From contig OX597824.1 of NCBI GenBank assembly GCA_951406725.2, positions 26,722,001 to 26,786,000 of the forward strand: a stretch of DNA of 64,000 nt, given 5' to 3'. The notes beneath the pieces are model-generated. The model saw nothing but the letters and a program-made list of their open reading frames with translations, was not told the origin of the DNA and did not search any database. The stretch is from Octopus vulgaris. Taxonomy: Eukaryota. Of this stretch, positions 2,390-62,980 are shown one piece after another; the first letter of the stretch is position 1; each line of letters starts with the position of its first letter. Position numbers and translations under genes: made by a program.

Positions 2390-3500
2390 AAGGTGACTCC
2401 AGGTCATCAGCGTCACTCGGTCTCATCACAAATTTCGCACAAGACAAACCTGTTCGAAGAATTTCACGTTTTCCCCGCTTTATTTCTAGTCCCAAATGGC
2501 TTGTTTTGTTTTTAATATCTAGTACTATGTCTTTCTCCATTTCAAAATTAAAGGTAAAAATAAATCAACCCTGCAAAACACAACAGATCTTTACACTCAG
2601 ACGTACAGAATGACAGCAATCAAATAATGACAGCAGAGTGCACAACAAACATCAGCGGTCTGGCTGTCCACTGTACCCTTGACAAGAGATGCCAGTTATG
2701 TATTGCGGGTTTGAATTGTGTAGGAGGAGGGTTGGGGGGGGGAGTATTGCACGGAGTTCGAGCCTCGAGTGAATTCTGAATTTGATGTTAAGATGTTTTG
2801 GGCAGTGTTTACCGCATATTCTTCACACTGTGCAAATGTTGCAGCGCTCTCGGCGGCGTTACATAACAATGACGTAATTTTAATGGCTTCGTCGTCGTCG
2901 TCGTCGTCGTCGTCGGAGGAGTAACGTCCATGACTCTATTCAGAGACTCCATGACTCTATTCTGAGATCCCATGACTGGTAGGAGAAAGTGGGGAAAATT
3001 TATCTTAAACCGGAGATCTTGTCTGAATATTTATAACGCGGTGGACTCCGATAAATTCAACCAGCAGTCACGTGGTACTATTAAACCCAGCTTGAGAACT
3101 AAGCCTACCCATCAAATTTGCACAAAGAAGCAAAACTTTGGCAACGAAAGGAAACAAATCATTAATCATAAAACAATTACCAATCTAGATTCGTTTATTC
3201 ATATCATTAGTTTTTACACTAATTGATTTTCACCAAAAATCGTGAATGCTAAAATGTCTCATTTACGCGAGACATTTTTCTTGGCTCCATTGATTCAGAA
3301 TTAAGCTGTCAACACAAATAGCTTGACGCCATCATCACAACCTCATGGCTGTCTTGAATATATGACGACGTTCTAATTAAGGATTTTTCATAAAATATAA
3401 TTTTTGTCATATTTTTGCATGTCTCTCTTGTTGTTTGTTTGGTAACAGAAGTTTTTAAATTCAACTTGAACATTTCAGTAATATTATCCCCTTATCTTGA

Positions 3501-3901
3501 AGGCATTGATTTGGTGGAATTCTTAGCACGCCGATCACAAACGCTTAGTGGTATTTCGTCTGTTTTTACGTTCTGAGTTCAAATTCCGTCGAGGGTAAAC
3601 TTTGCCTTTTATCCTTTTTGGGTCGATAAAATAAGTTCCAGTTGAGCCCTGGGGTCGATGTAATCGACTTAATCCGTCTGCCTGTCTGTCCTTGTTTGTC
3701 CCCTCTGTGTTTAGCCCCTTGTGGGTAGTAAAGAAATAGGTATTTCGTCTGTTTTTACGTTCTGAGTTCAAATTCCGTCGAGGGTAAACTTTGCCTTTTA
3801 TCATTTTGGGGTCAATAAAATAAGTTCCAGTTGAGCACTGGGGTCGATGTAAACGAATTAACCTATCCCCACACTTGCTGGCACTATGCCAAAATTTGAA
3901 G
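3501..3901 (+). mobile_element. SINE family A dimer (body + tail 2, then body + tail 1)
   Basis: tRNA-like head with B-box-like gagttcaaattcc and central gcctt(t/c)atcc..gggtcgataaaataag. The body restarts at gtatttcgtc immediately after the tail ...gtgggtagtaaagaaatag. Confidence 0.9.
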
Positions 3902-3998
3902 TGAAGATTATTCCTTATCTTCAAGATATTTACAATAGAAAGGAAATTCGCACCACGACACTGAGCCTCGTAGATACACACATACATGCATACATGTA

Positions 3999-4203
3999 CA
4001 GGGTCTCCATAAATTGCCTTTACAATTTGAAAAATTGGCAAAACAAGAAGAAAAATAAGGATAACTCAGCAAAGTTCTTTGGAAAATATAGGAAAACAAA
4101 TAAAGAATTATTAAAAGCACAAGAACGCTTCTATGAGGGCTCCATTGTTTGCACGCAATGATCTAATGAAGAAGAGGCTGTAAAGTTAATTTATGGACAC
4201 TGT
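3999..4203. mobile_element. Tc1/mariner-type MITE
   Basis: TA then cagggtctccataaattgcctttaca at the left, and imperfect inverted tgtaaagttaatttatggacactg at the right. Confidence 0.55.
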
Positions 4204-5055
4204 TTATTACGAGATACATCAGATATACGGATGATATAACCTCGCTAAAGGATGACGCAGAAAACGTAGTGAAAGGTGACCAAATACTAAATATAAATTA
4301 TTTACGGTTACTATTTAGAGGTCGCACTTTAAGGTTCAATGAAAATCAAAGATGACACCAAGTAACTTCCGACAAAAAGTTTTACAGAAGGTAATCGGAA
4401 CGGAAGTTACCATGATTCCACGGCATCTTCTCGCGCCTGTGTAGATGGGTTCCTCAAATTTAAATCGAATCGTAAATATTTTATCTATCTTAAAATCCGT
4501 CATCTTTTACTCGTTCCAGTCATTAGACTGAGGCCATGCTGGGGTACCACCTTGAATTTTTTGTCGAATGAATCGATTCTAGTACTTTTTTTTTAAAGTC
4601 TATTTTGTTGCTTGTTGCGATCTGTTGTCGAACCACTAAGTTATGGGGATGCTAACATACCAACACAGATTGTCAAGCGGTGGTGGGATAAACACAGACA
4701 GCAAGAAATACGTACACATATTCACACACATACATACACATATTTGTAATTGTGGCCTACTTTAGTATATTTTTGTACTCATCTTTACCTTACATGACTT
4801 GAGGGCCTGAAATCTGTGAAGAAATTATTATTAAGGCGGTACGCTGCCAGAATCGTTACCATGCCGGGTAAAATGCTTGGCGGCATTTAGTCCGGCTTTA
4901 CATTCTGAGTTCAAATTGGCTATCATCCTTTTGGGGTTAATACCATTCAAACACTGGGATCGATGTAATCGACTTCACCTCTCCTCCAAATTTTCAGACC
5001 TTGTGCCTATAGTAGAAAGGATCATCATCATCATCATCATCATCATTATTATTAT

Positions 5056-6319: not shown

Positions 6320-8282
6320 GCAATCACTGCTGCTGCTGCTGGAAAATGGCGGTGGCGGTGGTGGTGGTGCTGCTGCTGATGCTGTTGCTGATATTTTTTA
6401 ATCTCTTTATTGACAACAATTAAAAATGGCTACGTTCAAATGCGATGCTGTTTATTGACTTATAAATATGAAAATAACATCGAACATGGCTCCCGATATC
6501 CATCAATCTCGCAGTATGTTTCTCCCTCTTCCACCGTCACTCTATTCACACCATCACTCTCCTCTCCCAACTCTCTTTATCTCTATTCTGTTCTTCTTTC
6601 CTTCCTTCCTTCCATACTTTTATTTCTCGCCTTTATTATGCTTTTACTTAACATTTTTATAAATTATAATTTTTTAAAAACTTCTTTACATTTTCTAAAC
6701 GTTTCATTTAATTGATTAACGGCTCCAGTGGCAGCAGATGTTGTTATTGCTACCCGTATTATTCGTTAGCAATTCTGTTATTCTTGTTTTCGTTAATATT
6801 GTTGTTGCTGCTAGTGTTACAGTTGTTGCTATTGTTTTTGTTGCGATCGTTGCTGTTGTTGTTATATTGTTTCTGACTCTTTTTTTGTTGTTGTTGCTAT
6901 TATGCATTTGTTGCCGGTTTAGTTGTTGCTGTTGTCATTGCTGCTGTTTATATCGTTGTTCTTGCAGTTGATGTTTTCTGTTGTTGACGCTGTTGTTGCT
7001 GTAGTTGTTGTTGTTAATATTGCTGTTGCTTTTGCCTTAGTTGTTATTATTGATTTGTTTTTGTTGTCCTGTTATTGTTGCAATTGGTAATTTTTGTTGC
7101 CAACGTTGTCGCTGCTGTCTTCTTCTTCTTCTTCTTCTTCTTCTTCTTCTTCTTCTTCTTCTTCTTCTTCTTCTTCTTCTTCTTCTTCTGCCTCTTCCAA
7201 TCAGGAATCCCACCATTAGCCACAAAGAATAATCTCTAATTCGAGCCTACTCTAAGCTACTAAGAATGCGTGTAGCAACTTCAAGATCCACCCACCACAC
7301 ACGATAGACTGGCGGTTGCACGGGTGCGAAAGCTACGTTGTTATACTCATTCCGTAAACGGTGGCTTTTAACAGGTGGAGAACTGAACCACCCTGGGGTA
7401 CAGAGCATTCGCAATCTAGACTAGGTTCTGAAAGTTTACCACAACATAATGGGTTACACCATGGTTCCTCTGCTTTGTGGCAGAAGTAGGAGGAAAGAGT
7501 GAGTAAAAGTTGTGGCTAAAGAGTACAGCAGGCCTCCCCCCCACCGCCGGAGCCTTGTGGATCTTAGGTGTTTTTGCTCAATAAACACTCACAATGCCCT
7601 GTCTGAGAATCGAAATCGCGTTCTTACCACTGCGATTCCGCTGGATGCTATTGTTGTTTTTGATTGTGTTGTAGCTGTAGCTGTTGTTCCTGCCATTGTT
7701 GCTTGTTATAATCGTTTTGATAATTAATAATGGTTTTAAATCCTGATACAAGGCCAGTAATTTCGTGAGAGAGATGAAGTCGATTACATCGACGCCAGTG
7801 CTCAACTGGTACTTATTTTATCAACCCCCGAAAGGATAAAAAGTGAAGTCAACCTCTACAGGACTTGAACTCAGAAGTCAAAGACGGACGAAATACCTAT
7901 TTCTTTACTGCTCACAAGGGGCTAAACACAGAGAGGACAAACAAGGACAGACAAACGGATTAAGTCGATTATGTCGAGCCTAGTTCGTAACTGGTACTTA
8001 TTTAATCGACCCCGAAGGGATGAAAGGCAAAGTCGGCCTCGGTGGAATTTGAACTCAGAACGTAGCGGCAGACGAAATACTGCAAAGCCTTTCGCCCGGC
8101 GTGCTAACGATTCAGCTAGTTCTGCACCTTGTTTTTAGTAACTGACAATAACATTAGAGATTTAGTAGCTATGGTTATTCTGTGCTATAGTTATAGTCAA
8201 ACTTGCTTTTATACTAGCTGTTATTTGCTTCCTATCACTACTTCTGATGTTATTGTAATTGCTGCTATTGACGTAGTAGTAT

Positions 8283-13701: not shown

Positions 13702-14066
13702 CTTTCGTCCGGCTTTACGTTCTGAGTTCAATTTCCGCCGAGGTCACCTTTGCCTTTTATCCTTTCGGGGGTCGATAAATCAAATAACAGTGAAAAACTG
13801 GGGGTCGATGTAATCGTCTCATCTCCACCTACCCCTAACTGCCCTTGTGGCGAGCTGGCAGAAACGTTAGCACTCCGGGCGAAATGCGTAGCCGTATTTT
13901 GTCTGCCGCTACGTTCTGAGTTCAAATTCCGCCGAGGTCGACTTTGCCTTTCATCCTTTCAGGATCGATAAATTAAGAACCAGTTACGCACTGGGGTCGA
14001 TATAATCGACTTTGTCTATCCTTGTTTGTCCCCTCTGTGTTTAGCCCCTTGTGGGTAGTAAAGAAA

Positions 14067-14128
<62 letters not shown>

Positions 14129-14780
14129 TAGCATGCAGGACAAAATGCTTAGCGACATTTCGCCGTCTTTACGTTCTGTGTTCAAGTTCCTCTCAGGTTG
14201 ACTTTGCCTTTCATCCGTTCGGGTTCGATAAAATAATTACAAGTTGAACATTGGAGCCCAGGTAATCGGTTTATCCCTTCTCTGAAGCTGATGTCTTTAT
14301 GCCACAATTTGAAACCATTATTATTAATACTTTGAAGGCGGTGAGCTGGTAGAATGTTTTGCACGCCAGGCGAAACGCTTATCGGTATTTCGTCTGCCGT
14401 TACGTTCTGAGTTCAAATTCCGCCGAGGTCGACTTTGCCTTTCATCCTTTCGGAGTCGATAAAATTAAGTACCAGTTACGCACTGGGGTCGATATAATCG
14501 ACTTAATCCGTTTGTCTATCCTTGTTTGTCCCCTCTGTGTTTAGCCCCTTGTGGGTAGTAAAGAAATAGGTATTTCGTCTGCCGTTGCGTTCTGAGTTCA
14601 AATTCCGCCGTGGTCCACTTTGCTTTTCATCCTTTCGGGGTCAATAAATTAAGTACCAGTTACGTACTGGGTTCGATATAATCGACTTAATCCGTTTGTC
14701 AGTCCTTGTTTGTCCCCTCTGTGTTTTAACCCCTTGTGGGTAGTAAAGAAATAGGTATTTTGTCTGCCTTTACGTTCTGA
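13702..14780 (+). mobile_element. Cluster of SINE A copies including a trimer at 14336-14780
   Basis: Repeated ttacgttctgagttcaaattccgccgaggtcgactttgcctttcatcc, with aagaaatag-gtatttcgtctg-type junctions at about 14570 and 14755. Confidence 0.9.
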
Positions 14781-19797: not shown

Positions 19798-19820
19798 AAA
19801 TATATATATAAACACTGCTT

Positions 19821-20232
19821 AAGGCATCAAGCTGGCAGAAACGTTAGCACGCGGGACGAAATGCTGAGTAGTATTTCGTCTGTCTTAACGGTCTGAGTTC
19901 AAATTCCGCCGAGGTCGACTTTAGCCGTTATTCTTTCAGGATCGATAAATTAAGTACCAGTCGCGTATTGGGGTTGATCTAATCGACTGGCTCCCACCCC
20001 GGAATTTCCGGACCTTGTGCCTAGAGTAGAAAAGAATCGTTAGCTTACTTGATGAAAAGCATAGGGGCATTTCGTCCATCTTTTAGTTCTGAGTTCAAAT
20101 TCCGCCGAGGTAGACTTTGCCTTTTATCCCTTTGTGTATCGATAAAATACGTACTAGGTTGTGCAATGGAGTTAACATAATCGCCTTACCCCCCCTCCAT
20201 CGAAACTGCTGGCCTTGTGCCAAAATTTGAAA
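19821..20232 (+). mobile_element. Two adjacent SINE A (tail 1 type) copies
   Basis: Two B-box plus central domains, each ending ccttgtgcc... Confidence 0.85.
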
Positions 20233-21287: not shown

Positions 21288-21842
21288 ATGTGGTGAAGTC
21301 GTGTGGCCTAGCGGTTAGGGCATTCAGCTCACGATCGTAATGTCATGAGATCAATACTCGGCGGCGTGTCGTGTCCTTGAGCAAGACATTTTACTTCACG
21401 TTCCTCCAGTGCCCTCACTTGGCAAAAATGAGTTGTACCTGTATTTCAAATGGCCAGCTATCTCGCACTCTGTGTCACGTTAAATATACGTGTGTCTGTG
21501 AAGTGAACGGTAACTTGCATATTTGGGTGGCGAGCTGGTAGAATCGTTAGCACACCGGGCGAAATGCTTAGCGGTATTTCGTCTGTCGTTACGTTCTGAG
21601 TTCAAATTCCACCGAGGTCGACTTTGCCTTTCATCCTTTCGGGGTCGATAAATTAAGGACCAGTTACGCACTGGGGTCGATGTAATCGACTTAATCCGTT
21701 TGTCTGTCCTTGTTTGTCCTCTCTGTGTTTAGCCCCTTGTGGGTAGTAAAGAAATAGGTAACTTGCATATTAATTTCACGAGGAGGCTGTTCTGTTGATC
21801 GGATAAACTGAAACACTAGTCGTCGCAACCGACGGAGTACCA
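21288..21842 (+). mobile_element. SINE C-related element interrupted by a SINE A tail-2 copy (21525-21756) with 15-bp TSD
   Basis: TSD ggtaacttgcatatt flanks the SINE A copy. Outer sequence matches the family C 3' part (ttaatttcacgag..ggctgttc..ttgatcggat...cgtcgcaaccgacggagt). Confidence 0.85.
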
Positions 21843-22303: not shown

Positions 22304-22890
22304 AACGCTAGCACGCCGGGCGAAATGCGTAGCGGTATTTCGTCTGCGTTACGTTGTGAGTTCAAGTTCCGCCGAGGTCGACTTTGCCTTTCATCCTTTC
22401 GGGGTCGATAAATTAAGTACCAGTTACGCACTGGGGTCGATGTAATCGACTTAATACCTATGTCTGTCCTTGTTTGTCCGCTCTGTGTTTAGCCCCTTGT
22501 GGGTAATAAAGAAATAGAAATAGGTATTTCGTCTGCCGTTACGTTCCGAGTTCAAATTCCGCCGAGGTCGACTTTTCCTTTTATCCTTTCGGGGTCGATA
22601 AACTAAGTACCAGTTACGCACTGGGGTCGATGTTATCGACTTGATCCGTTTGTCTGTCCGTGTTTGTCCCCTCTGTGTTTAGCCCCTTGTGGGTAGTAAA
22701 GAAATAGGTATTTCGTCTGCCGTTACGTTCTGAGTTCAAATTCTGCCGTGGTCGACTTTGTCTTTCATCCTTTCGGGGTCGATAAACTAAGTACCAATTA
22801 CGCACTGGGGTCGATGTAATCGACTTAATCCGTTTGTCTGTCCTTGTTTGTCCGCTCTGTGTTTAGCCCCTTGTGGGTAGTAAAGAAACA
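22304..22890 (+). mobile_element. SINE A trimer with a single outer 11-bp TSD
   Basis: One partial head and three body + tail 2 units. TSD ggtcttattta at 22293-22303 and 22891-22901. Confidence 0.9.
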
Positions 22891-25237: not shown

Positions 25238-26840
25238 TCTTCTATATTACCCACTACGGGGCGAACATATAAAGGACAATCCACAATATGCGGGGACATA
25301 CAAACAGAGGGAACAAAAATTAGAACCAATGTATGAAAAAAAAAATGACATGAAAAGTAAAATGAAAAATGGAATGAAGCCATTCTGCCCCACTTCATAG
25401 CAGTTTCATTTAAACCTTTTAAACTTCGTTCCCGCTAGAATATCGATTCCGGATTCTCCCACCAATTTCACCTCCCAACTCCCATATCCGCTTTTAAATC
25501 TTGTTATTTTTTTCTTTGTGTTCATCTGAGTACAACGCGCAACAGTGCCATCCCTTTATGTTGTCAAAACTCGTTCCAACTGTTTTAAAGTCTTCCCAAG
25601 ATAACACTTCTTTACACAGTGTTTCATTTGAGTCATCATACATTACTTGGGTAGAGTCTGGGTGTTGGGTAGAGTCTGACAGTTGGGTAGAGTCTGGAAG
25701 TTCTTGTCTGTTTGTACATTTTATGTGTCAGAGAGGGATGGACAGGTTTGGTGTCTGTAGGGGGAGGGTGGGTTGAAGAGGGTGTGGTTGGGGTTTGGAT
25801 GGTTATAAGGCTTAATTTTTTCTTTTTCTCTTGTTCCTTTTTCCTATTGTTTCCCATTCATTGTCTATTTCTATCTTCTCTACTTCTGTTGATAGTTTGT
25901 ATTCTTTCTTATTTTCTTGCTCTTTTGTGGGGGGATGAGGGGATCTTTCTCTTGTATCTCCTCCGTCTTTCTGGTCAGTGAAGGGCAGTCCACTCTAATG
26001 TGGCCCTTCAGGCCACATTTAAAGCATCGAAGGATTCTACCCTCCACCCTGATCCTCATTATAGCGTCGACCATAATTATTGTTTCTGTAATGTTTTCTA
26101 GGGTTTCGGTTCAATCTTGAAAAATCATGTCCAGTATCTGTCCCTTCCATATAGCACATAGCATTTTTGTAGCCTGGAGAACCGCTATGTTGTCCTCACT
26201 CCCCAGAAGGACAGCGGCTGCTATCCAGGCCACATCTATCTCTGGCGGATTTCCCTCCACCTTAACTCTGGTCGCACGTTGTCCACGGTAAGTGGGCAAA
26301 AGCACAACTTCTTTACTCTTAATGGTAGTCGCTGCGTGTTTTTTTGCTGTTGCCGCGTCCTTGAATCTTACCTCCACTACTCCGAACTTAGCACCTCTCG
26401 CAAGGTACTCAATTTCATGCCATATCGGTCCCAACGCCTTCTCCACCTGATCCGTGGTCACGACGTCAATCCTTCCTTCAATTATTGAAAACGTCTTGAA
26501 CAAATTTGTTCTTTCTTTGATATTATTAAAGGTCTCTTGCAGGGTGGGGTGGGGGGCAATTTAACGTCACATCCATCGAGACTTAATAAACGTTTGTAAT
26601 TTTCAAATTCACCAATATTAATATCATTTCCCTGGCACTTTGTCACGTCCACAAAGTTTCTCTTTTCTCCATTTAATTTTTCGTCCATTCTCTTGACCGT
26701 TTTCAAAAGCTTCTTCCTCTAAAGATGACATATCTGAATAGCTGAAGTCTTCTTCAGACATCTTTTTCACTAAGTCGACCTTCCTCTATGAGAAGCACAA
26801 ACAAAATTGCTGCAAAGCAGCACAGTAGCAACTAATGAAG
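25238..26840 (-). mobile_element. ORF1-only LINE derivative (Tx1/L1-like gag-type ORF1 with CCHC knuckle), about 1.6 kb
   Basis: Short 5' leader, a broken ORF from ATG 26761 to TGA 25406, and about 170 nt of 3' UTR. No endonuclease or RT sequence is visible. Confidence 0.7.
25406..26761 (-). pseudogene. Disrupted ORF1 nucleic-acid-binding protein with zinc knuckle
   Basis: MSEEDFSYSD..., an RRM-like stretch FGVVEVRFKDAATAKK...RVKVEGNPPEI, an in-frame TGA at 26113-26111, then IRVEGRILRCFKCGLKGHIRVDCP (CX2CX4HX4C). Several frameshifts; an 18-bp repeat x3 at about 25647-25697. Confidence 0.75.
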
Positions 26841-27143
26841 TGGTACTTATTTAATCGACCCCGAAAGGATGAAAGGCAGTTTGAAGTCAAAACGTAGCGG
26901 CAGACGAAATACCTATTTCTTTACTACCCACAAGGGACTAAACACAGAGAGGACAAACAAGGAGAGACATACGGATTAAGTCGATTATATCGACCCCAGT
27001 GTGTAACTGGTACTTAATTTATCGACCCCGAAAGGATGAAAGGCAAAGTCGACCTCGGCGGAATTTGAACTCAGAACGTAGCGGCAGACGAAATACGACT
27101 ACGCATTTCGCCCGGCGTGCTAACGTTTCTGCCAGCTCGCCGC
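26841..27143 (-). mobile_element. SINE A dimer with the second body truncated at the ORF1 element
   Basis: Full head + body + tail 2, then gtatttcgtctg...aagtacca joined to the 5' end of the ORF1 element. Confidence 0.9.
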
Positions 27144-27526
27144 TTTTGATACTCTCATTGGTGTTTACGATGCCTACAGTATAGCAGATAAAGAATTAGT
27201 GGGGAGCAATGGGAGCCTTCTTTTCTATTCACCTTCAACGTAGTCAGTTTTAAGAGAGGGTGAACAATGAAAGAAATGACTGGATACTACTGTCTCAAGT
27301 ATTAAGGCTCACAGAGCCAGTTACCCAGTTTCAAAGCCATATAAGTGACCGAGATTAAAATGCAGCCCTTGAGCGGCATGCTTGATCGTCGTATTTGTAT
27401 TCATTTGCCGGTGAGTGTCCTGGAGTGACGTAAAATAAGAGATTTTGTTCAAGATAACACGCTGCCCTGTCAGGGAATCAAAACCGCGATCTTGCTATAT
27501 GAGTACCACATCCTAAGCATTATCTT

Positions 27527-33896: not shown

Positions 33897-34067
33897 TATT
33901 AAGCAATGTAAGTATTACATCAGTTTTAAAATGTAGAGCAATCTTCAGCTATATATAGAATTCTTAAAATTTAATGGACAATATTAAGCAATGTAAGTAT
34001 TACATCAGTTTTAAAATGTAGAGCAATCTTCAGCTATATATAGAATTCTTAAAATTTAATGGACAAT
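33897..34067. repeat. Exact 85-bp tandem duplication in a (TA)n-bounded module
   Basis: tattaagcaatgtaag...aatggacaa repeated with period 85. Confidence 0.95.
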
Positions 34068-43350: not shown

Positions 43351-43956
43351 TAAGGTGGAGAGCTGGCAGAAATGTTAGAACGCCGTGCGAAATGCTTAGC
43401 GGTATTTCGTCTGCCGTTACGCTCTAAGTTCAAATTCCGCCGAGGTCGACTTTGCCTTTCATCCTTTCGGGGTCGATAAATTAAGTACCAGTTAGGCACT
43501 GGGGTCGATATAAACGACTTTATCCGTTTGTCTGTCCTTGTTTGTCCTCTCTGTGTTTAGCCCCTTGTGGGTAGTAAAGAAATAGGTATTTCGTCTGCTG
43601 TTACATTCTGCGTTCAAACTCCGCCGAGGTCGACTTTGCCGTTCATCTTTTCGGGGTCAATTAAATAAGTACCAGTTACGCACTGCGGTCGATATGATTT
43701 ACTTAATCCCTTTGTCTGTCCTTGTTCGTCCCCTTTATGTTAAATCTCTTGTGGGCAACAAAGAAATATGAAACGTTAGAACGCCGGGTGAAATGCTTTC
43801 GTCTGTTTTTACAATATGAGTTCAAATTCCACCGAGGTCGACTTTGTCGTGCATCCTTTCGGGTCGATTAATTAAGTACCTGTTACGTAGCAGGATCGAT
43901 CTAATCGACCGCCTCGCTTCCCCAAAATTTCGGGCCTTGTGATGGAGTAGAAAAGA
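43351..43956 (+). mobile_element. SINE A trimer (two tail-2 units plus one tail-1 unit) with outer TSD
   Basis: TSD aatatat(g/a)ctgtaacta on both sides; internal junction aagaaatag-gtatttcgtctg. Confidence 0.9.
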
Positions 43957-51817: not shown

Positions 51818-52995
51818 TCTCTTATTATAAAAGGCAGATTTTATCTGCCTCCCTTTGGGAGTTATACAAATCTACAATATAGGATTTCTTCAATTACAAT
51901 TTACCTAGCATTTTTAAGAGTACAATGCATCGCGTCATACCAGGTCCAGTTTTTAAAATTTAAACTCCAATTAAGCAAAATTTACAGAAAACTCACATTC
52001 TGGTGTGTGTGTCAAATGCCTTTCTTAGTCTGGTTTACACCACACGCAAACGCACACACACAGTGTGCGACGAATAAAATGAAAGTAAATGTAATATTTG
52101 TTTCTGTCTATCACGCTGATAGATACATGAGTAAAATGTATGGGAAGCTAACAGATAACAGTGAGTGAAAATGTTCTTGGAAGAGAGTAAATTAGCGACA
52201 GAGTGATTTGAGCAAGACTAAACTGAAAGTATGAAACAGTGTTTATGTATAAACAGACGACACTTATATAAACCCTTTCGTTACCAAACCGCCCGAATTT
52301 ACCTATTCATATTTAAATGAGAATATCAGAGTAAATCTCTTTAGTACATTCGTGAAAACACGTATTATACTTCGTAAACACTTCAAATACAGTTTTGTAC
52401 AAAAATCGAAGTGTAATTTTAATTCCGTGAATTATGGGAGATTTTTTTCCGAAATTTGTTCCTATTGTGTTTTCAAAATTTGTAATTCTGACAAAAAATG
52501 GATACGAATTTCATTATATCAAGCAGCGAGTCAGAATTCGAAGGATTTTCTACTGAAGACCTTCATAAATCTAACTCTATGACTGAAAAAAAAAAGCATC
52601 TTTATATAAGAGTGAAGTTGTGTGTCTGTCCCCTTCGATTTAGATTCGTAACTACTCCCACATTTTGCCGTGAAGTTTAACCAAAAGCGGGTATCTTATA
52701 GTCGTGATTCATATCGAGCCCTTCTGGGTATTAGCGCGCGTCTACGATGAGTCTACGATTTAAAAAAAATTTACCATCATATTTTTCCATTTTAATGCAT
52801 TTTTTTCGCTATTATATAAGGGAAGTAACTCTCTAAAAATATCTACGATGTGTCAACGATTTTAAAAAAAAATTTACCTTAATTTTTTTTCAATTTTTAA
52901 TGCATTTTTTTGCTATTTTTTGGCTATAACTCTCTTAAAAATGCTTATATAGTTATTTCCCTTACAACCCGAGCAACGCCGGGCGATACTGCTAG
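51818..52995 (+). mobile_element. Composite non-autonomous Helitron (core unit 52599-52995)
   Basis: 5' a/TCtcttattataaaag and a second 5' end a/TCtttatataagagtgaagttgtgtgtctgtc. 3' hairpin cccg-agcaacgc-cggg followed by CTAG/t. Inserted between A and T; internal repeat of about 70 bp x2. Confidence 0.75.
52273..52597 (+). mobile_element. piggyBac-like left end and transposase N-terminus within the Helitron
   Basis: taaa/CCCTTTcgttacc terminus followed by MDTNFIISSSESEFEGFSTEDL, an acidic SxSEFEGF motif common at piggyBac transposase N-termini. Confidence 0.45.
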
Positions 52996-53037
<42 letters not shown>

Positions 53038-53882
53038 TGATATATTTGCACACACATACACACATAAATGCAAACACAAAAGCGCACACGCACACACACA
53101 TACACACACACGCACTCACACACACATATATAGAGAGAGACAGACTGAGAAAGATAAATGCAGGCTCACGCACACATATGTATACACACGCATACACATA
53201 TACACTCATATGAAAGTTTGTGTCATTGTAAGGTGGGGTGGGGGAGGTATTTATGAGACACATATATCAAATATCGCCCTAAATAACGAAATGCCACGAA
53301 CGTGTATGTGCGTATGTGTGCATGCATATGTGTGCATATGTGTGTATGTGTGGGTGTTTGGGTGCTATGTTTACAGCTAATTAGTAATGGTTCGATTGTC
53401 TAAATGGAATATTAATTCAATTAGGTAATATTTCAGACTTAACCTCTGATCCCTTTTCCCCCCTTACAAGCAAACTGTCACTTTGCCATATTGTTCTCCT
53501 CAAACTTGGAGCTATAAATTCTGTAGCCTCTACTCACACATAATATACACATCACACTACACATCACACTCGTACATATAGTTATATAATTAAATTATGA
53601 ATGATACTGAATAAACACAAGGATACTATTTAACTAAACGTAGATTAAAACTAGCTGCTCACATACCCTGGCGACCAGAACAACACCATTGTAAAATAGC
53701 TTTCAAATAATGTACACCACTGATGAGCTGGAGGACTGAACTTAGAGTGAATACCTTAGCGTGAATGCTTTAGCACGGTTTCTATGACTGGATGCCTTTC
53801 TTAATGCCAAATACTTCACAGAGTGTAGAGTGCTTTTTTCTATGGCACCAGCATTCTTGATGTCACCAAGCAACTTTATTTT

Positions 53883-54290
53883 AAGGCGGCGAGCTGGCAG
53901 AAACGTTAGCACGTCGGGCGAAATGCGTAGCGGTATTTCGTCTGTCGTTACGTTCCGAGTTCAAATTCCGCCGAGGTCGACTTTGCCTTTCATCCTCTCG
54001 GGGTCGATAAATTAAGTACCAGTTACGCACTGGGGTCGATGTAATCGACATAATACCTATGTCTGTCCTTGTTTGTCCCCTCTATGTTTAGCCCCTGGTG
54101 GGTAATAAAGAAATAGGTATTTCGTCTGTCGTTACGTTCCGAGTTCAAATTCCGCCGAGGTCGACTTTGCCTTTCCTCCTCTCGGGGTCGATAAATTAAG
54201 TACCAGTTACGCACTGGGGTCGATATATCCGACTTAATCCATTGGTTTATCCCCCTCTGTGTTTAGCCCCTTGTGGGTAGTAAAGAAATA
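53883..54290 (+). mobile_element. SINE A dimer with 12-bp outer TSD
   Basis: TSD aactttatttta; two bodies with different tail-2 variants. Confidence 0.92.
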
Positions 54291-56049
54291 AACTTTATTT
54301 TATCAAATTTACCATAGAGGCAGTACAAAGATGGGTAGCTTTGCGGGCTGGACAAGACATTGATGAGGCGAATGATAATAATACAGGATGATAAGGATGG
54401 GAGAAGACAGAAAGCGCCCGCCGACCCTCTGCTTCTCTATAACATTGTTCTTTTAATAAGACAAATCTTGAGGTAATGACCCTTTTACAATTTACAATAT
54501 TTTACAATTACTTGGACTAAGAAGCCTATTACAATTTAAAACATAATAAGATACATATTGAGGCGATGAACCTCTTACCTCAGGTTCCCGATTAATTCTC
54601 TTGCGACCTGCAGGAATCCCTGCATCCGCAATTTGGGTACCAAGAACATAATCTATAATCCTCCCTTGGGAAGGAGACTGATGTGTGAGATAAATCCTCT
54701 CTTTTTCCAGTAGCAGGGCAGCCACCTGCGGAGGCCACTCTGGTCTGTCAATGAAAGACGGTCCCATTAGTTCCAGACTCAGAACGATATTTTCCACATA
54801 ATTATCAATGGCCCCCTCCCCTGTGATAGAGGAACTTGCAAAACCAAGCAACTTGCATGATCAGACTCCTTCAGCTGAGATGAGGACTAGTACTAAGTGA
54901 GGTAGCTTTATGTCAGATGATGGGAGGTTAAATTTTGATGGAGGGACAGAAACAATTATATTGCAGCAGATGAGATACATGGTTACACCGGTTAGAAAAG
55001 GAGAGAAGATGGTGAAAAGGTGTCAGGGCGTACCCTCAAGTTACAGGGTACACTCTAAGAAATAGGAAGATGATGTGAAGCGTGGTGTGTGGGAGGGGGA
55101 GCGATACACTGTAATAAGGATGCAGATTAAATGTATGAATATGAAGTATGTGTGAGTGATGACCAATATGATAGGATATCAAACAGAACAATACAATGTT
55201 AAGAAATTATATTGAGAATACAAGGTGGATGACAAAAAGAGATGGCTTCAGGGTGTGTATAAGCGGGTAGCCCCAAAGTTGGGGATGGAATCTGTGCATC
55301 TTTACTTAGAAGTACTGCAGCTGAGTATATAGTGTTGTTGTAGTTATAAGTGTGGTGGTGGGATGGGTGCGGGCTGGGAAGAAGGGTTGTTGGGACGGCT
55401 TGAAGACCGAAGACTACCATTATTATGGCGCAGAAAAATTCAACAACCAGCATAAGACAGGCCAATATCACTTGGCCGGATGCACAGCAAATCTCAACAA
55501 ACAGGAAATGATAAGGTCAAATTGCTGTCCAAAGTAAACGAGAGCCCGTTGGAATTGAGAATGGGATTTTACTAGTCTCATCGTTCGAAACCCCAGAAAT
55601 ATTTTAAAATTCAGTCGAAAAAAATATTGTGTATTATTAATAATTTAGATTGGGATAAATTTACTTATCAGCCTTTAAGGTCAAATATGATGTCATTTTA
55701 TTTTATTCTTTTATCTAGTTTCAGCTCACGAGCTGTGGCCATGCTGGGGCACCACCATGTCATGTTCTAGTCTTATTAATAATTAACTGTAGTGTTTTCT
55801 CATAAATGCAATGTATTGTGAATACGTTAAACGTCAATATTATTTTCGCCAGTTGTTATTATATTTTGTTATCTAACTAGCAAAGAATTCTGGAAAAAGA
55901 AAAAAAAATTGCTGCATCATAGCCTTCTTATCGAAATCCATTCACGAAATACTCTTTTGTCAACTGAATGAAGTACTGTGTTTAAAAAAGAAACAATAAA
56001 AAAAAATGTAGCTTGTTATACTGATTGAAAGACCTCGACTAAAAAAGCA

Positions 56050-56463: not shown

Positions 56464-56870
56464 AAGTGCTGAGCTAGCAAAATGCTTAGCGTGCCGGGCA
56501 AAATGCTTAGCGGTGTTCCGCCCGTCGCTACGTCCTGAGTTCAGATTTCGCCGAGGTCGACTTTGCCTTTCAACTTTTCGGGGTCGATAAATTAAGTACC
56601 AGTTTGACACTGGGGTCGATGTAATCGACTTAATTCGTTTGTCTGTCCTTGTTTGTCCACTCTATGTTTAGCTTCTTGTGAGTGGTAAAGAAATAGGTAT
56701 TTAGCACGCCGGGCAAAATGCTTAGCGGGGTTTCGCCCGTCGCTACGTCTTGAGTACGAATTCCGCCGAGGTCGAGTTTAAATTTTATCCTTTCGGGGTT
56801 GATAAAATAAGTACCAGTTGAGCACTGGGTTCCATGTAATCGAATAGTCTCCTTGTGCCAAAGTTTGAAA
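56462..56870 (+). mobile_element. SINE A dimer
   Basis: Body + tail 2, then a restart at ttagcacgccgggc, ending with a tail-1 remnant. Confidence 0.85.
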
Positions 56871-62352: not shown

Positions 62353-62368
62353 TATATTTTGTGTATGT

Positions 62369-62600
62369 AAGGCGGCGAGCTGGCAGAAACGTTAACACGT
62401 CCGGCGAAATGAGTAGCCGTATTTCGTCTGCCGTTACGCTCTGGATTCAAATTCCGCCGAGGTCGACTTTGCCTTTCATCCTTTCGGGGTCGATAAATTA
62501 AGTACCAGTTACGCACTGGGGTCGATATAATCGACTTAATCCGTTCTTCTGTCCTTGTTTGTCCTCTCTGTGTTTAGCCCCTTGTGGATAGTAAAGAAAT
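62369..62600 (+). mobile_element. SINE A monomer (tail 2) with 17-bp TSD
   Basis: TSD tatattttgtgtatgta on both sides. Confidence 0.92.
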
Positions 62601-62980
62601 ATATATTTTGTGTATGTATTGTATATGTGTATGTGTGAGTCTTTGTGCCTGAGTTTGTTCTCCTATTTCTTAAGTATGATACGAAGTCTTTAAACACGAA
62701 ACAAAGCAAAAAGAATATTGTATTTCCGAGGATCAAGCCATTGAAACAAGACAAATATTGTGAAAGAAGGGACGTTTTAAAATGTGGGTTTATATTAATA
62801 GTTGTTTATTCAGGGTTTATTGAATTCCAATAAACAAAGCTGAAAAATTAGTTAAATCGATTACAAGAAATTTTCATCTTTCTATAAAGACCACCTGGCA
62901 CCTGATCTGGGTCTATTTTGCAAACGATTCTGTTTGTGATGCGAAAAAAGGATAATTCTCATTGAACAGAAAATATCATC

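Follow-up and report, generated by a model that had tools for sequence, protein, structure and literature searches.

An array of SINE units with a single head lies within the window, the whole 64,000-nt stretch of Octopus vulgaris DNA that was analysed. Its components are listed in Table 1, together with the other arrays and copies of the family in the window. A full copy of the element is 234 bp long: a head of 50 bp and a body of 118 bp are followed by a tail of one of three kinds (T1, T2 or T3). The bodies of monomers diverge from the young consensus by 15% where they carry T1, 11% with T3 and 4.8% with T2.

Table 1. Positions of the SINE features in the window
Positions	Strand	Feature	Basis
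53872..53883	+	Left outer target-site duplication, 12 bp, last base shared with head	Sequence, duplication search
53883..53932	+	Single SINE head, A-box-like motif (by inspection)	Sequence
53909..53948	+	12-bp stem-loop; insertion site at 3′ end of loop	-20.7 kcal/mol as RNA
53933..54050	+	Body 1; variants at body positions 12, 23 and 64 common to body 2	
54051..54115	+	Tail 2, subfamily variant of 33/417 units; last 43 nt LINE-like	
54116..54120	+	Target motif GGTAT; tail meets restarted body	
54117..54234	+	Body 2, headless	
54235..54290	+	Tail 2, canonical type, ~10-bp deletion	
54291..54302	+	Right outer target-site duplication	
3500..3890	+	Old head, body + tail 2, body + tail 1; shared private tract ~100 bp; ends approximate	
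7732..8129	-	Old head, young body + tail 2, old body + tail 1; no shared tract	
14331..14780	+	Head, two tail-2 units, third body cut after ~26 bp	
22304..22890	+	Trimer of tail-2 units, 5′-truncated; outer duplication starts GGT	
26838..27146	-	Head, tail-2 unit, deleted downstream body	
43351..43768	+	Dimer; last (C-type) tail joins A-box region of further tail-3 copy	
56471..56850	+	Tail 2 + GGTATTT joined inside head of tail-1 copy; units share variants near body start	
21526..21760	+	Tail-2 monomer in unique DNA; duplication starts GGTAA (five-base target habit)	
62368..62601	+	Tail-2 monomer; duplication starts TATAT	

The SINE and its arrays in the window

The element is short, dispersed and of high copy number, with target-site duplications of median 16 bp, as expected of a SINE. 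Tail 2 followed by AGGT has 39,443 exact matches in the 2.8-Gb genome. The tail also resembles that of a candidate partner, an APE-RT LINE, with 37 of 43 nt identical for the C-type and 36 of 43 for the T-type of tail 2. The head contains A- and B-box-like motifs by inspection, while ARAGORN returned 0 genes and Rfam no tRNA match. An Rfam scan for ribozymes and known RNA families gave only two chance-level miRNA matches, and the fold of the whole element has z = -1.2. The label MetaSINE finds no support in the published passages available.

The earlier note had described the focal bodies (53883-54290) as sharing private variants while their tails differ. The two tails are different tail-2 variants, and the three variants common to the bodies occur together in 0 of 417 other tail-2 units. 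The tract CCTCTCGGGG, taken there as private, is not, with 387 exact 35-mers genome-wide and 6 of the 417 sampled units. In the sharing test, which sets neighbour pairs against permuted pairs at a 1% or 5% threshold, the body of the focal dimer passes at 5% and the tail does not, and the pair misses the 1% threshold. The sequence of the dimer fits a long duplication, with later conversion as a possible alternative.

All nine junctions reported in the window, where a body restarts directly after a tail, are present (3740, 7896 (-), 14570, 14755, 22524, 22708, 26912 (-), 43586 and 54117), the two on the minus strand lying 1 base from the numbers first given. One head is seen in each of these arrays, as described, and outer duplications are visible at 53872/54291 and around 22304-22890. 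The best case of a long duplication is the array at 3500-3890. There the units at 3551 and 3740 do share variants while carrying tail 2 and tail 1, and a shared 25-mer occurs exactly twice in 2.8 Gb, both times here. The units at 22524 and 22708 had been linked through AAACTAAG; this link is weak, the motif being found in 9 of 647 units and the pair failing the sharing test. The bodies at 7732-8129 were said to share nothing private, and they have no shared tract, which is the common case (84 of 92 pairs).

Other repeats lie in the same region. At 13703-14068 a tail-2 copy is nested in the tail of an older tail-1 copy and ends in (TAT)n. In unique DNA there is an exact 85-bp two-copy tandem duplication at 33897-34067, and a 101-bp two-copy repeat at 52741-52942. 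The upstream flank contains three near-identical reading frames, at about 135,000, 148,600 and 168,800 of the joined stretch (L044-L047), with what we take to be an alpha-tubulin-like motif; they are possibly a local gene cluster.

Insertion at one base of resident elements

Headless SINE arrays are real and genome-wide. The junction 30-mer has 7,450 exact matches in the genome and its reversed control 0, so the headless junctions do not arise by chance. The junction sample comprises 409 tail-2 ends; an unselected 464 kb surrounding the window supplied 60 of them, and the other 349 come from loci picked by pattern. The body is joined at one offset in 265 of these. In the remainder, 7 are joined at the same base after an extra GAAATA and 10 to a head close to the A box; no join was scored for 116, and 11 are joined elsewhere or unscored. 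The join to the body start is found in 28 of the 60 unselected ends. Tail 2 is joined to an old-type body start in 223 matches genome-wide, and the exact junctions are estimated at ~29,000 (64/88 x 39,443), from component patterns that differ in stringency. Arrays in the sample have 2-5 units; six adjacent junctions occur at one place in the genome. Inverted junctions, with tail-2 parts back to back or reversed, were observed at L169:4930-5070, L159:5221, L204 and L216. These often turn at the GTCGAT...ATCGAC hairpin of the body end, and possibly reflect twin priming or fold-back.

Some arrays have two heads. The pattern of a body start followed by a new head has 51 exact matches genome-wide, and 40 of the stretches were fetched. 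Most of them run from an old head through a duplication and a full new copy to an old body. The second head belongs to a tail-2 copy in 37 of the 40, and an old body follows the tail of the new copy in 30, carrying T2 (11), T3 (9), T1 (6) or no called tail (4). The duplication, that is the stretch from old to new head repeated after the tail, is mostly 15-17 bp, and local variants are found on both sides of it (e.g. L382, L375 and L361). Where tail-2 copies have landed in unique DNA in the ordinary way, the duplications measure 9-22 bp, with a median of 16 (47 of 102 terminal tails), and begin directly after AAAGAAATA. With duplications of ~16 bp the two-headed arrays are therefore ordinary target-primed insertions at the junction base. 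Tail-2 copies thus insert at a fixed base inside resident SINEs, as the earlier note had proposed, and the mosaics described below agree with it. In L350, L374 and L384 heads are stacked, the head and the 16-bp duplication being repeated at 65-bp spacing.

The one-headed arrays are mosaics of old and young segments. In 23 arrays ending in T1 the divergence is 13.2% in head positions 5-24, 8.1% in head 25-48, 4.4% in the first body and 12.1% in the last body; the same segments in 64 arrays ending in T3 give 10.5, 8.1, 4.7 and 9.1%. In the first unit of T1-ending arrays T1-type alleles are present in 11 of 21 at head position 20 and 8 of 22 at head 37, compared with 8 and 3, respectively, of 42 tail-2 monomers (p=0.01 and 0.006). 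Further on they fall to 2 of 22 at body 1, 1 of 23 at body 10 and 0 of 23 at body 92-93. By eye, the outer duplication of the old element is visibly kept in many mosaics among the matches listed. Heads of this kind are thus old towards the 5′ end and younger beyond it, and in the usual product new sequence has taken the place of part of the resident head and of the short duplication. Replacement of the 5′ part of the resident, not its duplication, is the usual outcome. Together with the two-headed arrays, the divergence data also uphold the proposal that tail 2 is grafted ahead of old tail-1 and tail-3 bodies. Plain 5′ truncation was rejected as the source of the head switch, because in 41 of 47 ordinary insertions the copy begins no more than 10 nt from the 5′ end; resident alleles, present in roughly half of the heads, are too common for so few truncations.

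The mosaic head might also arise in two stages, if every insertion were two-headed at first and recombination later dropped one head. Two-headed arrays exist, a crossover between heads would yield the gradient from old to young, and two-headed copies are slightly younger than one-headed (3.5% versus 4.0% divergence), although this difference is not significant (p=0.10). We nevertheless regard this route as distinctly unlikely. There are 51 two-headed matches against the ~29,000 estimated junctions, and a handful of such forms among ~300 sampled junctions, and loss of almost all of them through a 65-bp repeat would be hard to square with the surviving 118-bp body repeats. Since two-headed forms are rare and barely younger, and the longer body repeats survive, replacement by joining at insertion is favoured over replacement at a later stage. 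Chimeric L1 insertions and those with large duplications are a possible analogy. For LINE 5′ ends an annealing pathway is published (available passages of PMC4245944).

Alternatively, the whole head-body-tail-body-tail unit could be inserted at once, from a dimeric master or by reverse transcriptase jumping between two RNAs. Read-through array RNAs could be inserted whole, some tail-2/tail-2 arrays have one outer duplication of tail-2 type, and 4 of 43 headed dimers share both body and tail. Yet the downstream tail-1 and tail-3 bodies are 2-3 times older than those upstream, many heads are of resident type, and the variants at 3551 are unique in the genome, which leaves this explanation very improbable. 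A dimeric master was what the earlier note had named as fatal to its proposal, and the old, varied downstream bodies and the unique 3551 variants speak against it; on the same grounds an Alu-like dimeric class was rejected for the family.

A shared tract is found at the 1% threshold in 8 of 92 T2-to-T1/T3 pairs, and the other 84 share nothing. Six of the eight tracts run from the junction to an end point at 45-108 bp, and three of the eight pairs are in trimers. The pattern of private bodies with different tails is therefore real and uncommon, and it fails as the rule (bodies private to the locus, tails following the subfamily) that had been expected. Likewise, of the duplications of about 10 to over 100 bp that were proposed, the long ones would correspond to these eight tracts, whereas the normal size is ~16 bp. 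Among T2-T2 pairs 30 of 132 pass at 1%. At 5% the same pairs divide into 27 sharing body only, 18 tail only, 18 both and 69 neither, with ~7 passes expected by chance in each test. Locus clustering is seen for the tails in 36 of the 132 and for the bodies in 45. Rare alleles shared by neighbours across 149 pairs number 55 in bodies and 44 in tails, compared with 3.4 each in permutations. Clustering of tails by locus, the other result that the earlier note would have counted against itself, thus holds in part, within the T2-T2 pairs, and there it indicates that arrays gain units later through unequal crossover. In several of 35 trimers the middle unit is a hybrid, with the 5′ end of the last unit and the 3′ end of the first, and derived alleles of both (most clearly L086, also L181 and L073); this is a signature of unequal crossover.

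DNA-level duplication thus builds a considerable proportion of the units. As the source of the long shared tracts it is a fair rival (about 40% by our estimate). That tandem duplication, unequal crossover or gene conversion acted alone, with no self-insertion, is hardly credible, even given the shared tails, the hybrid trimers and the published reading of headless SINE arrays in a clam (available text of PMC11481361). Such processes cannot fix 265 junctions at one base, they leave two heads around a 16-bp duplication unexplained, and in 97 pairs a young tail-2 unit lies between an old head and an old tail-1 or tail-3 body. The two-headed arrays refute DNA duplication as the origin of the arrays; as secondary growth it is accepted.

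Target choice and the candidate carrier

In 82 unselected non-SINE targets positions 3-5 are T, A and T in 56, 61 and 50 cases, and the first two bases sort into GG or TA classes (22 GG, 10 GA, 4 TG and 19 TA; p=0.0003). Twenty GG-type non-SINE targets with a duplication, 9 of them selected on the first three bases and one row probably a SINE fragment, match the SINE site over the first five bases on the primer side only, with nothing upstream. In the 464 kb a tail-2 junction is found at 24 of 50 SINE GGTAT sites versus 1 of 573 other GGTAT sites, an enrichment that is overstated, given that the 50 include sites restored by previous insertions and that DNA duplication produced some of the junctions. 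The target class can be predicted from a single tail position (p=6e-19 over five classes). The C tail accounts for 18 of 20 AG-type targets, among them the A-box site, and the T tail for 117 of 126 body junctions; T-type tails also use TATAT targets. This link could reflect two different carriers, since the A-box site is used by a non-SINE element as well.

The base preceding the body is C in 19 of 42 T2 monomers, and C after the tail has only 226 matches genome-wide. Insertions at C-type residents have 6 matches compared with 51, by patterns that differ, and 2 of 3 informative two-headed arrays at such residents keep the C downstream. The RNA would thus select the site rather than overwrite it, and target choice explains the clean junction. 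For this reason overwriting of the junction by the RNA was dropped. Two hints had pointed to it: GGT in 8 of 8 unselected downstream tail-1 units, a triplet outside the six commonest of 26 tail-1 monomers, and a cleaner first 10 nt.

Pol III terminates at T runs. The longest such run in the reference head, body and tails is 3, and with no run of four T Pol III would read through the arrays. Site use, target classes, the tail link and the lack of four T together favour the view that a run-on RNA pairs with the resident body. Insertion by R2Ol rose strongly when the 3′ target sequence was extended from 4 to 100 nt (PMC6795142), and SART1 and R1Bm employ 3′ annealing (PMC7265360), according to the available passages of both papers.

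The LINE family was reached through non-SINE sequence with a tail-2-like end. It has 20,352 first-look candidates, many with open frames of >1,100 aa. The copy L303 has a 1,152-aa frame with Exo_endo_phos (APE), RVT_1 and zf-RVT domains, and an upstream frame with no Pfam match. From its motifs we assume that it is of the Tx1 type. Dong/R4, an initial guess, was dropped as carrier when the tail match led to the APE-type LINE. In nearly all the copies shown the 3′ end runs into (TATC)n-type repeats, and one clear duplication starts (T)CTAT. None of 29 young LINE copies lies at the SINE body-start site, and the LINE tail is absent from 48 body starts with no preceding head or tail 2 and from 25 pattern matches. 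For the SINEU/Tx1-Mar pair the carrier LINE lies at the site of the SINE, which is not so for the LINE family examined. The LINE is accordingly at least a relative of the carrier, rather than the proven carrier.

A few LINE observations stand apart. Two of the 29 young copies (L281 and L299) run into apparent ORF2 of the same LINE, possibly by self-insertion. The young family has dozens of open frames of >1,100 aa and the target (TATC)n, and may generate or expand (TATC)n microsatellites.

The A-box site appears from its junctions to be a second self-targeting hotspot, used by tail 3: tail-3 copies join it in other copies through their own last bases (window 19819-20190, L079, L177 and L147). 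One of 13 matches at the A-box site is non-SINE. This element (L334:1-1530, minus strand of the locus) has a Tx1-like tail and is joined at AGAAAC; no ORF2 match was found in 1.5 kb upstream, which is ORF1-like by eye.

A site-specific Tx1 endonuclease of another family could instead cut at the body start, RNA pairing being minor. In the available text of PMC4494074 target choice in the Tx1 clade is mainly endonuclease-driven; the non-SINE element at the A-box site and the rare use of C-type residents also favour such an enzyme. Against this, the body starts and pattern matches carry no LINE tail, off-SINE targets share no upstream sequence with the site, and the T-type tail is also found at TATAT targets. 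We judge this explanation unlikely, but by no means negligible.

Proposed pathway and related systems

The reading that we prefer, with a probability of about 0.7, is that tail-2 copies insert at GGTAT in their own family, probably carried by a Tx1-type LINE and probably primed with the help of read-through RNA. The LINE endonuclease would nick at NN-TAT. Array transcripts ending in the tail and GGUAUUUCGUC... would pair with the nicked resident body and so fix the start, a run-on tail-2 RNA continuing into GGUAUUUC... The usual product would form when the cDNA anneals to the head of the resident, which would leave a single head whose 5′ end is old and whose remainder is young. The rare product, seen in the two-headed arrays, would be a full copy joined end to end, with two heads around the ~16-bp duplication. 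In fewer than 1 in 10 cases a shortened cDNA may anneal further down, so that 45-110 bp of the resident body is duplicated. Unequal crossover or slippage would then add units, as the hybrid units suggest. Contigs of four runs (three other organism codes) were compared with window 3000-4690; the flanks are orthologous in two, and none of the contigs bridges the array, repeat copies swamping the alignment.

More tentatively, and at somewhat less than even odds, the SINE may inherit its target from its last landing place, such that body, A-box and TA-repeat copies beget insertions of the same type, as run-on RNA pairs with DNA that matches it, and old SINEs are rewritten seamlessly through homologous joining of the 5′ end. 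If so, this would be a self-reinforcing, RNA-guided targeting loop with the enzyme unchanged. The surviving head would drive the young body and tail, old loci would be revived, and LINE partners would be swapped in place. Such self-made landing pads would feed the spread of the SINE.

Several consequences follow. The arrays provide an observable route for the swapping of SINE tails, which is usually ascribed to RNA template switching (available passages of PMC4824008), and here site preference is seen to seed short tandem arrays. Nearly half of the tails fall within repeat DNA that was already there, which offers a harm-avoiding strategy. Tens of thousands of natural events record LINE 5′ joining at homologous targets, an issue also relevant to R2-based gene insertion. 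Estimates of repeat number and age, and subfamily trees, made for the octopus genome combine old heads with young bodies.

In largely open-access literature no case was found of a SINE whose target is one base within its own family and whose second head is lost. The long duplication of R9 in bdelloid rotifers is reportedly 126 bp and of fixed length. A fixed long duplication of this kind is not the case in the octopus SINE, where the normal size is ~16 bp and long tracts of 45-108 bp occur in 8 of 92 pairs; its long tracts do recall the long target duplication of R9 (available text of PMC3636483). In R2Ol, R1Bm and SART1 read-through sequence of the target, carried at the RNA's 3′ end, sets the start and raises efficiency (PMC6795142 and PMC7265360, in the passages available), as proposed here. 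Those are autonomous LINEs of rDNA or telomere repeats with specific endonucleases, whereas the octopus element is non-autonomous and is its own 'target gene'.

Like the octopus, the blood clam S. broughtonii has TSD-(SINE)n-TSD arrays with a full-head first unit, later units cut at the same head position and one outer duplication (PMC11481361). They differ in comprising 3% of SINEs and in having truncated internal tails, and unequal recombination is invoked; self-insertion, old/young mosaics and tail grafting do not figure in the available passages of that account. In squamate SINE satellites (PMC10702118) and TE dimers (PMC5932611) site preference leads to dimers, which recombination expands, the dimers arising by double insertion (PMC5932611); jerboa SINE multimers are another near case (PMC10702118). 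These statements rest on the portions of both papers available. The octopus arrays differ from the squamate satellites in staying at 2-5 units in the sample and mixing subfamilies. A further close likeness is to SINEU-3/Tx1-Mar of crocodilians, which in the available text of PMC4494074 likewise has a Tx1-related tail, a strong preference for one site in a dispersed repeat, a 16-bp duplication and tandem copies formed by sequential insertion. Its target is a Mariner transposon and its tandem copies sandwich the duplication, whereas the octopus SINE targets its own family, with about half of its tails, and the second head is usually absent.
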